Shown: piece after piece, positions 14,050 through 16,311 of the stretch
Numbering within the stretch: the first letter of the stretch is position 1
Layout of the letters: every line of letters begins with the position of its first letter
Assembly (NCBI RefSeq): GCF_053078305.1
Contig: NZ_CP166879.1
Length of the DNA stretch: 64,000 nt
Direction: 5' to 3' (one strand)
The notes under the pieces: model-generated
Told to the model about the DNA's origin: nothing
Seen by the model: the letters and a program-made list of their open reading frames with translations, nothing else
Database searches by the model: none
Program-made: the position numbers and the translations under genes

Positions 14050-16311
14050 TCAATTCTCTTGCCCCAGCGCCTGCGCCAACTGCGCACGGGTAAAGGGTTT
14101 GCGCAACAGCGCCACGTCTGGCAGCGCGGGGTTATGGCTGGGGCGTAAATCCTGACCGCTGATGAGTAGCAGCGTCAGGTGCGGGTAAAGTTTGCGGGCC
14201 GCATTGACCACTTCTGCGCCGCTCATGCCGCCGGGGAGCATTAAATCGCTGATAAAAATATCGATTTCTGCTGATGCCGCCAGCAGATCCAGCGCCTGTT
14301 CGCCGCTGCTTGCTTCCAGCGTCAAATAGCCCAGCAGGTGCAACTGTTCGCAGATGGTCTGGCGCACCGCGGCTTCATCTTCCAGCACTAACACCAGTTT
14401 ATCGCCGCTGACAGAAGCCTGTTCTACTACCGCTGGCGATAGGTTTTTCGCCGCCGTCAGCGCGCGGGGAAGCTGTAATCTGACCGTTGTCCCCTGCCCC
14501 GGCGCGCTTTCAATTTCAACGCGCCCACCGGACTGGCGCACAAAACCATAGACCATCGACAAACCCAGCCCGCTGCCGCTGCCCGTCTGTTTGGTGGTAA
14601 AGAATGGCTCAAATACCTGGCTTTTCACCGCCTGCGACATGCCGCAGCCGTGATCGATGACTTCCAGCGCCACCATATCCTGTCGCTGCCCGCCGCTACG
14701 GGTAACGCGCTGATTCCAGGTACGAATTTTGATAATTCCCGTCTGCCCTTCCATCGCATCGCGGGCGTTCATCACCAGATTGATGATGGCATTTTCCAGC
14801 TGGCTGACATCAATCCACGCGGTCCATGCCGGAGACTGGGCTTCAATCTCCAGCGTCAGCGTCGCCGGTAAGGAGTGGCGCATTAATTCGCTTAACTCTT
14901 CCAGCAATGTTTTTAGTTCAACGGATTGCGGATGTAAGGACTGCTTACGGGAAAACGCCAGCAGTCGCTGGGTCAGTAGCGCGCCACGTTCGGCAGCTTG
15001 CTGCGCCCGCTGTATTCGCGGCGCGTCGGGTGAGTCCGTGTTCACCAGTTCCAGGCTGCCAATAATTACCGCCAACAGATTATTAAAATCATGGGCCAGC
15101 CCGCCCGTCAGTTGCCCAACCGCTTTCAGCTTCTGGCTGTGCAATAGCGCCTCTTCCAGCCCCTGCCGCTCGGTTTGGGCAATCTCCATCTGCATGGTTT
15201 TCTCTTTCAACAGCCGTGACGTTCGTTCGAGTGACGCGGTATTGCGGGCAAAAACGTTAAAGGCGCGCGCCAGTTCACCCAACTCATCACGCCGCTGTAA
15301 CGCCGGAAAGCTGACATCCGCTTCACCGTGCGCCAGGCGGCTCATGGCGCGGGAAATCGCCGTCAGGTTAGTGCCGAGGTTGCGATAGATATACCAGCCG
15401 GCAAACGCGGTGATCACCACCGCTAACAGGGCGAAAATCATGATCACCCTCTCGCCGGAGCGCAAATCCTGGTAACTTTGCGCCACACGCTGACCGGAGA
15501 GCGTCGCCACCTGTTCGGCGTAACGGTTGATGTCGCCATTGAGGATCGCCACCAGCGCTTTGATGTGAAACATATACCAGCTGATTGCCAGATCGCTTTG
15601 CTCCAGAGCGGCAGAAAGCGGCGCGAGTTTACGCATTTCATCATTGAAATCATTGAGTAACGTATTAACCAATGGCGTATCGCTGTGGGTCGGCAACGCA
15701 GACATTACCCCGACCAGTTGATGAATAATCGCCTGCGGCGCGGGGGTGGCAATAGCGGCAACAATCAGTCGGTTCATCTCGTTAAGCAAAATATCATCTT
15801 GCGCGTGAGTGACTTTTTGCAGATGCCGCAGATAACTTAAGTTTTGATACAGCGAACTTAACAGCGCGTTGCGCTCCAGATGCCGCCTTTGCCCGCGCTC
15901 CAGCATACCGCCGACGCTGGTTTGCAGTTCGTTGCTACGCGTGATGATGCGCGTCACCAGCCCGGCTTCCTGCTGCGCTAAAGGCGCGTTCGCCAGTTGT
16001 GCAAGCGAGCTTTTTAATGCACGCTGTGTCTCCTGCAACCGCTCGGCTTCGCCTTTATATTCCAGCGCTCCCACCACCTGCGACAATCGCACCGCCGCCG
16101 TTGCCACGTTTGCCGTGTCGCGCGCCAGATTCAGGCTGCCGGTCATATCATCCACCGTTTGCTGCTGCACCAGCTCCTGCATCTGGCTGGCATGACGAAA
16201 GCCCATTACCGCCACGCCGCTGACCATCAACGTCACCGCCACCACCAGCAAATTCAAAAGCAGCAAGCGCCCGCGCGCGCTGGCAAAAAAGTGACGTCCG
16301 GGGTGCGCCAT
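14050..16311 (-). CDS. Hybrid sensor histidine kinase (TM - periplasmic helical domain - TM - HAMP - HisKA - HATPase_c - receiver; no Hpt seen)
   Basis: ATG at 16309-16311 (MAHPGRHFF); two TM segments; H-box GGLAHDFNNLL; N-box NLVMNARDAM; G-boxes IDHGCGM and GSGLGLSMV; C-terminal REC with LVLEDE and ISDLMLPG. Confidence 0.85.
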   Translation of the reverse strand: MAHPGRHFFASARGRLLLLNLLVVAVTLMVSGVAVMGFRHASQMQELVQQQTVDDMTGSLNLARDTANVATAAVRLSQVVGALEYKGEAERLQETQRALKSSLAQLANAPLAQQEAGLVTRIITRSNELQTSVGGMLERGQRRHLERNALLSSLYQNLSYLRHLQKVTHAQDDILLNEMNRLIVAAIATPAPQAIIHQLVGVMSALPTHSDTPLVNTLLNDFNDEMRKLAPLSAALEQSDLAISWYMFHIKALVAILNGDINRYAEQVATLSGQRVAQSYQDLRSGERVIMIFALLAVVITAFAGWYIYRNLGTNLTAISRAMSRLAHGEADVSFPALQRRDELGELARAFNVFARNTASLERTSRLLKEKTMQMEIAQTERQGLEEALLHSQKLKAVGQLTGGLAHDFNNLLAVIIGSLELVNTDSPDAPRIQRAQQAAERGALLTQRLLAFSRKQSLHPQSVELKTLLEELSELMRHSLPATLTLEIEAQSPAWTAWIDVSQLENAIINLVMNARDAMEGQTGIIKIRTWNQRVTRSGGQRQDMVALEVIDHGCGMSQAVKSQVFEPFFTTKQTGSGSGLGLSMVYGFVRQSGGRVEIESAPGQGTTVRLQLPRALTAAKNLSPAVVEQASVSGDKLVLVLEDEAAVRQTICEQLHLLGYLTLEASSGEQALDLLAASAEIDIFISDLMLPGGMSGAEVVNAARKLYPHLTLLLISGQDLRPSHNPALPDVALLRKPFTRAQLAQALGQEN

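Follow-up and report, generated by a model that had tools for sequence, protein, structure and literature searches.

Gene content of the island and architecture of the kinase

We analysed a window of 64,000 nucleotides (the whole stretch studied, from contig NZ_CP166879.1 of assembly GCF_053078305.1), centring on a histidine kinase gene on its minus strand (14050..16311). From its open reading frame (ORF), translation, Pfam domains and near-identity to the kinases of O157:H7, this gene is identified as rbfS/lmvK, encoding a hybrid sensor histidine kinase of 753 aa. It forms part of an island in which lmvK, lmuXYZIAK and lmvR lie between yjdP and yjcS. The start of the 753-aa product is an ATG at 16311, and the ORF at its longest reaches a GTG at 16488.

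The domain order of the kinase is a transmembrane (TM) helix, a helical periplasmic domain, a second TM helix, HAMP, HisKA, HATPase_c and a receiver, with all features on the minus strand. The two TM helices are hydrophobic segments at approximately residues 15-36 (TM1, 16204-16269) and 286-308 (TM2, 15388-15456), and between them lies the periplasmic sensor domain (residues 37-285, 15457..16203), predicted to be helical bimodular and TorS/McpS-like. Four Pfam domains follow: HAMP (residues 309-357, 15241..15387, E 7.8e-9), HisKA/DHp (residues 399-458, 14938..15117, E 4.2e-7), the catalytic HATPase_c (residues 501-616, 14464..14811, E 7e-22) and the fused receiver (Response_reg, residues 640-749, 14065..14394, E 1.9e-10). 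The motif GGLAHDFNNLL begins at residue 403 and contains the phospho-accepting His407 (codon 15091-15093), LVLEDE is found at 641, and ISDLMLPG at 687 contains Asp689 of the receiver (codon 14245-14247). The first-pass annotation, made from the letters of the window, had described a 753-aa kinase with two TM helices, HAMP, HisKA, HATPase_c and a C-terminal receiver, and had named these three motifs; Pfam, the hydrophobic segments and the translation agree with it throughout. The periplasmic domain is predicted to be all-helical, as stated there (AlphaFold mean predicted local distance difference test, pLDDT, 83.8), although shorter than had been given, at about 250 rather than about 300 residues. 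A chance ORF is ruled out, because four independent domain matches fall in one 753-codon ORF with orthologues in hundreds of genomes. The protein is thus a hybrid histidine kinase with HisKA, HATPase_c and a fused receiver, its phospho-accepting histidine and aspartate both intact.

Divergent from the kinase gene are six plus-strand genes. The first three encode a sugar ABC transporter: lmuX (16425..17945) an intact ATPase of 506 aa with no internal stop and AraG/XylG/RbsA-like NCBIfam matches, lmuY (17942..18916) a permease of the ribose type in NCBIfam, and lmuZ (18935..19876) a periplasmic sugar-binding protein (RbsB-like, type I, from NCBIfam). The product of lmuI (19931..20614) is a D-lyxose/D-mannose isomerase (NF051472, 438 bits against a cutoff of 350) that matches the PDB entries 3kmh and 3mpb at E 4e-160, the former being a solved D-lyxose isomerase. 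Next are lmuA (20629..21489), for a class II ketose-1,6-bisphosphate aldolase (NF005284, 578 bits against a cutoff of 406), and lmuK (21486..22487), assigned to the PfkB family of carbohydrate kinases from weak NCBIfam ribokinase/PfkB matches and the RefSeq annotation of an orthologue.

The response regulator gene rbfR/lmvR (22484..23191) is on the minus strand, the same strand as the kinase gene and six genes away from it, as had been noted from the sequence. It encodes a protein of 235 aa of the OmpR/PhoB family. The NCBIfam profiles for OmpR, VirG and PhoB span its full length, all below their equivalog cut-offs, and it has the architecture of a receiver followed by a winged-helix Trans_reg_C domain, the Pfam domains having been seen on its orthologues. 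Its Asp54 (codon 23030-23032, minus strand) was confirmed in the translation. The core-genome flanks of the island are yjdP (13652..13981, minus strand), recognised by DDRRRQL repeats in its translation and by the same place in O157:H7, and yjcS, an alkyl sulfatase gene (23470..25467, plus strand), assigned from the ORF and the annotation of syntenic Escherichia coli records.

Identity with the RbfS/RbfR (LmvK/LmvR) system

The kinase is identical in 743 of 753 positions (98.7%) to the protein of E. coli O157:H7 EDL933, from which it differs by one 3-aa indel and 10 substitutions, and in 742/753 positions to that of O157:H7 PV15-279. The regulator is identical over its whole length (235/235) to O157:H7 WP_000805929.1, the accession also found in EDL933. 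The same eight genes lie between yjcS and yjdP beside the phn operon in O157:H7 as in the window, and the window shares with the OI167 system of EDL933 the six intervening genes, the insertion site, the regulator box in the lmuX promoter and the phospho-sites. Judged by these sequence features, all of which agree, the gene is rbfS/lmvK of an OI167-type island in an E. coli-like chromosome. What distinguishes the window from EDL933 is its chromosome, which is approximately 98% identical over 25 kb to the best-matching complete E. coli genomes and an exact match to none; within the window there is no sign of an enterohaemorrhagic E. coli (EHEC) host.

In LmvK of EDL933 three residues of the periplasmic sensor are duplicated in tandem (NDF-NDF), which is not the case in the window or in PV15-279 (756 versus 753 aa); in the window the site lies at about 15650-15660 (kinase residues 217-222). 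The published residue numbers are offset by +3 because of this duplication, and once the offset is applied His407 and Asp689 align with H410 and D692 of the papers. Among 60 genomes sampled from the 410 kinase-bearing E. coli genomes described below, most O157:H7 strains have the form of the gene that is longer by 9 bp. PV15-279 also has a stop in lmuX (Q486stop, 21 residues lost) and the gene is annotated there as a pseudogene; lmuX is intact in EDL933 and the window, and we rejected the idea that it is a pseudogene of O157:H7 generally.

The system has been named twice, as RbfS/RbfR (Liu et al. PNAS 2022, PMC9860305) and as LmvK/LmvR with lmuKAIZYX on genomic island OI167 (Yang et al. mBio 2023, PMC10128022), and the domain order 2TM-HAMP-DHp-HATPase-REC is listed in a 2024 review (PMC11644481). 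It is reported to sense riboflavin and mannose and to activate lmuXYZIAK and, in EHEC and in strains positive for the locus of enterocyte effacement (LEE), ler. Purified RbfS autophosphorylates, more strongly with 20 uM riboflavin, and transfers phosphate to RbfR in vitro at a kinase to regulator ratio of 1:10 with no Hpt (histidine phosphotransfer) protein added; phosphorylated RbfR binds the ler promoter, and rbfSR alone gave the response in C. rodentium and in other EHEC serotypes (PMC9860305). Mannose and lyxose induce lmvR and lmuKAIZYX, for which lmvK and lmvR are both needed; on complementation, the H410A kinase and the D54Q regulator supported growth on lyxose significantly below that with the wild-type alleles (PMC10128022). 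Given the near-identity of the proteins, the in vitro transfer and the H410A and D54Q phenotypes establish the distal OmpR-type protein as the partner of the kinase, as the first-pass annotation had presumed. Deletion of lmuKAIZYX causes no defect in mouse colonisation, while deletion of lmvK or lmvR does (PMC10128022). LEE expression is altered by deletion of lmvR and unaltered by that of lmvK in one study (PMC10128022), and is altered by deletion of rbfS in the other (PMC9860305).

The kinase, its partner, the target operon, the DNA site and the missing Hpt are therefore all already published for a near-identical protein, and the locus is a known one. As a discovery it carries little weight, as it finds a published system again and restates a point already in print; its residual value is modest and of specialist interest.

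Distribution and conservation of the module

Megablast of the kinase gene against 5426 complete E. coli genomes detected it in 410 of them at approximately 97% nucleotide identity and always on the chromosome. Many of these genomes belong to O157:H7, O55:H7 and O145:H28. The isolates that carry the gene also include ones from human urine (Combat11I9), mink, pig, horse, goat, chicken (including avian pathogenic E. coli) and vegetables. Escherichia sp. E1V33 is 97.1% identical to the window over the island. Published accounts describe rbfSR/lmvKR as restricted to EHEC (O157:H7, O145:H28) and O55:H7, or as strongly associated with them (PMC9860305, PMC10128022, PMC11644481); a restriction to EHEC and O55:H7 is outdated.

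By sequence the sensor family is narrow, with 87 clusters in 1.84 billion representatives. Relatives of the sensor were found by genome scan in 144 species-representative genomes, of which 80 loci were kept; the scan used eight closer sensor sequences, so that the kept loci are biased towards Enterobacteriaceae, and the more distant relatives come from protein searches only. By record title, the 80 loci belong to Enterobacteriaceae (Citrobacter, Enterobacter, Leclercia, Kosakonia, Raoultella, Buttiauxella, Cedecea and others) with three exceptions, namely a contig that bears the title Chryseobacterium sp. and two metagenome bins titled only 'Proteobacteria bacterium'. The transporter genes, the regulator and the DNA box described below are also present in nearly every locus where they could be looked for.

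Among the 70 loci with both kinase and regulator, 53 have the gene order of the window and nine have only the regulator, the transporter and the kinase. In relatives with 24-40% sensor identity the kinase gene is again divergent from the transporter, and the regulator adjoins the transporter genes in two of these distant relatives, those whose DNA extends far enough. Some loci of Klebsiella, Raoultella and Phytobacter are without the isomerase, aldolase and PfkB kinase genes and retain the regulator, transporter and sensor kinase. Since the catabolic genes are missing in some lineages, the minimal conserved unit is the kinase, the ABC transporter and the regulator, and these three form an old module across many genera of Enterobacteriaceae. 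One Klebsiella locus has an AbiE toxin-antitoxin pair inserted.

These gene neighbourhoods also bear on whether the kinase and the distal regulator are partners or unrelated orphans. The six genes that separate them, and the lack of an effect of lmvK deletion on LEE expression in one assay, would be expected of orphans. Against this, the two genes occur together in 70 loci and the regulator gene lies directly beside the transporter genes in some lineages, phosphate is transferred between the purified proteins, and either deletion lowers induction of lmuKAIZYX. The published phosphotransfer and induction experiments refute the orphan explanation, to which we give almost no credence.

Conservation within the loci is uneven. 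LmuZ is 92-97% identical in most enterobacterial genera, an unusually strong constraint, and in the same loci identity is about 80% for the isomerase and about 75% for both the kinase and the regulator. An extra cytoplasmic PAS_7 domain of approximately 115 aa lies between HAMP and DHp in about 36 of the 82 aligned kinases. Examples come from Kosakonia, Buttiauxella, Cedecea and Raoultella and from the distant relatives; the form found in Escherichia, Citrobacter and Enterobacter has only a 40-residue linker at this place. The short form of the kinase may have lost a second, cytoplasmic input.

The regulator box in the lmvK-lmuX promoter region

The published footprint of LmvR covers -41 to -62 of the lmuX promoter and contains the direct repeat ATATGA-N3-ATATGA (PMC10128022). 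An exact match, ATATGAcaaATATGA, is present in the divergent lmvK-lmuX promoter region of the window (16338..16352, plus strand). It precedes the ATG of lmuX by 72 nt and lies 27 nt from the start codon of the kinase gene, which is read from the opposite strand. It is the only exact match in the window, where 0.1 would be expected by chance. Upstream of lmvR itself we detected only weak half-site matches to the box, with two mismatches.

Across loci the box takes the form [A/C]TATGACAA[A/T]TATGAA and is present in all 76 intergenic regions between the kinase gene and lmuX; in 69 of these no more than one position deviates from it. Its distance from the lmuX start is 69-81 nt in 76/76, including a locus whose sensor is only 24% identical. 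This retention at fixed spacing indicates that control of the transporter operon is ancestral. The sites reported for the regulator in the ler promoter differ between the two papers (TCTCACATAATTTATATCATT in Liu et al. and ATTTTA-N3-ATTAGA in Yang et al.), and by eye neither closely resembles the conserved ATATGA-N3-ATATGA box of lmuX.

Absence of an Hpt domain or of a linked Hpt gene

A Pfam search of the kinase gave no Hpt match even at E<=10, which bears out the earlier statement that none is recognisable at its C-terminus, and the protein ends four residues past the receiver, which leaves no space for one. The same holds for the family: in eight diverse full-length relatives Pfam found the receiver in 8/8 and a fused Hpt in 0/8, and the C-terminal tail after the K-P motif of the receiver is 15-33 aa long in 81 of 84 orthologous ORFs. 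When the kinase is aligned to the family profiles of TorS, the alignment stops at profile position ~770 of 914-967. This position presumably precedes the Hpt domain of TorS. As Hpt was searched for and is absent, the kinase is classed as hybrid and not as unorthodox (TorS/ArcB/BarA-type). Nor does an Hpt gene travel with the module, because in the 70 loci with both kinase and regulator no extra ORF, an Hpt gene included, is conserved; distant loci (24-26% sensor identity) retain the same module.

The fused receiver and the route of phosphotransfer

No substitution occurs in the 82 aligned kinases at H407, D645, D689, K738 or P739; only E or D is found at position 644, and only S or T at 718. 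The receiver domain as a whole is about 74% identical across these orthologues. The receiver is absent from the domain description of RbfS in Liu et al. 2022 (PMC9860305), as would suit a decayed pseudo-receiver with a structural role only. The retention of every phospho-chemistry residue in 82/82 orthologues of so divergent a domain makes such decay very improbable, and the receiver appears to be a working, catalytically competent one.

The first-pass annotation had left two routes side by side, direct transfer with the receiver as a sink or modulator, or the use of an unlinked Hpt protein, and this is exactly where the two papers diverge. A signal on the periplasmic bundle would pass through HAMP to the kinase core, where His407 would be phosphorylated and would hand its phosphate to Asp54 of the regulator; the regulator would then bind the direct repeat and activate lmuXYZIAK. 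The steps from signal to operon come from experiments in EDL933 and are carried over to the window from its near-identity. The fused receiver, phosphorylated at Asp689, would not be a relay step in this scheme; it would act as a competing acceptor, a sink or gate that tunes the output, as the receiver of VirA does for VirG.

We consider it likely that in vivo His407 hands its phosphate to Asp54 without an intermediate and that the receiver modulates this transfer as in VirA, and the in vitro and comparative data together favour this route over a relay. It is favoured because direct transfer occurs in vitro, because no Hpt accompanies the module, as a neighbouring gene or as a fused domain, in its movement between genera, because C. 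rodentium and other EHEC serotypes gained the response from rbfSR alone, and because VirA offers a close precedent. VirA lacks an Hpt and ends in a receiver, it phosphorylates the OmpR-family protein VirG directly, and its receiver controls VirG activation (PMC4705274). The kinase of the window thus shares with the VirA/VirG system and ChvE of Agrobacterium tumefaciens a membrane hybrid kinase with a C-terminal receiver, the lack of Hpt and an OmpR-family regulator. In that system the receiver is a modulator and not a relay, and the periplasmic domain receives its input from ChvE, a sugar-binding protein of the transporter type; both roles are transferred to the present system by analogy. The kinase core and the regulator have the VirA-like and VirG families among their best-matching profiles, yet the scores lie far below the cut-offs (PRK13837, 219 bits versus 647, with the match limited to residues 375-750, the kinase core and receiver; VirG, 180 versus 344), and the window kinase is without the cytoplasmic linker that VirA has for phenolics.

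Several points weigh against direct transfer and for a multi-step phosphorelay, in which phosphate would move from His407 to Asp689, then to the histidine of an unlinked Hpt protein or of the Hpt domain of another kinase, and finally to Asp54. Transfer between purified proteins at a tenfold excess of regulator speaks to competence and not to the route in vivo, and the strict conservation of the catalytic residues of the receiver fits a relay equally well; relays are, moreover, how hybrid kinases usually work. Enterobacteriaceae have core Hpt domains (ArcB, BarA, EvgS, TorS and RcsD) that could serve, and the absence of a linked Hpt gene is for this reason not decisive. As far as their accessible text goes, a D692 mutant is found in neither Liu et al. 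2022 nor Yang et al. 2023. Yang et al. call LmvK a hybrid kinase and explicitly draw transfer "via an unknown Hpt" (Fig. 8, PMC10128022). From the differing effects of the lmvK and lmvR deletions on LEE expression in that study, the regulator is phosphorylated from elsewhere under some conditions. The two papers also report two differing signals, riboflavin and mannose, and two differing ler sites (PMC9860305, PMC10128022). The relay has to be set against the Hpt-free transfer seen in vitro, against the lack of an accompanying Hpt gene in any of the 70 loci across many genera or in the distant relatives, and against the failure of every family member checked to acquire a fused Hpt; we regard it as a minority possibility, and direct transfer as the likelier of the two.

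The sensor domain and its possible input

A model of residues 1-360, built with AlphaFold (AF2) from a 23-sequence alignment, is all-helical at the mean pLDDT given above. Foldseek ranks the sensor domain of TorS first among PDB entries (3i9y, E 6.9e-4, TM-score 0.71 when normalised to the target); TorS-TorT complexes, PilJ and McpS come next. By sequence there was no Pfam match to the helical bimodular (HBM) domain. The model therefore describes the sensor as a TorS/McpS-like helical bimodular domain, predicted to consist of two stacked four-helix bundles between the two TM helices.

The likeness to TorS has its bounds. Liu et al. quote 43% similarity of the kinase to TorS (PMC9860305), and identity of the sensor sequences is only about 10-13%. 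The TorS/TorR system with TorT, which senses trimethylamine N-oxide, also has an OmpR-type regulator, and TorS reads its ligand through a ribose-binding-protein-like partner; it differs in that TorS has a C-terminal Hpt and a four-step relay whereas the window kinase ends after the receiver, and in that LmuZ is a transporter component and TorT a dedicated sensor partner. The scores against the NCBIfam families of TorS are 141.6 bits versus 676.5 (TIGR02956) and 83.9 versus 982 (PRK11466). From the HBM chemoreceptors McpS and PilJ the kinase differs in its output, a histidine kinase in place of a methyl-accepting signalling domain. Since its scores lie far below the cut-offs of both the TorS and the VirA families, the kinase is a member of neither; it is like TorS in sensor fold and like VirA in signalling logic.

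The ancestral signal would be the sugar handled by the adjacent transporter. One possible route, which the first-pass annotation had raised as speculation and which we hold tentatively and by analogy with TorT-TorS, ChvE-VirA and XylFII-LytS, is that the co-encoded LmuZ docks on the periplasmic bundle and so conveys the sugar signal to the kinase. This would agree with the match of the sensor fold to TorS and HBM domains and with the position of the kinase gene, divergently adjacent to the ABC genes wherever both are covered, even at 24-26% sensor identity. The most conserved stretch of the sensor, residues 62-88, lies at the predicted membrane-distal tip, and LmuZ keeps 92-97% identity between genera whose sensors are about 69% identical. 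Conversely, purified kinase alone responds to riboflavin, and HBM domains such as McpS, which binds organic acids, can bind their ligands directly. The colonisation phenotypes also count against this route, as deletion of lmuKAIZYX leaves mouse colonisation intact, unlike deletion of lmvK or lmvR.

Input and output can be combined, again by analogy and with similar reserve, in a picture where sugar-loaded LmuZ on tip residues 62-88 would be the ancestral input and the intact receiver would be a VirA-like gate or sink and not a relay. If this were true, the riboflavin response and the control of ler would be secondary co-options in EHEC. The broad distribution of the system itself argues for a regulator that was primarily one of sugar utilisation and was later co-opted for virulence.

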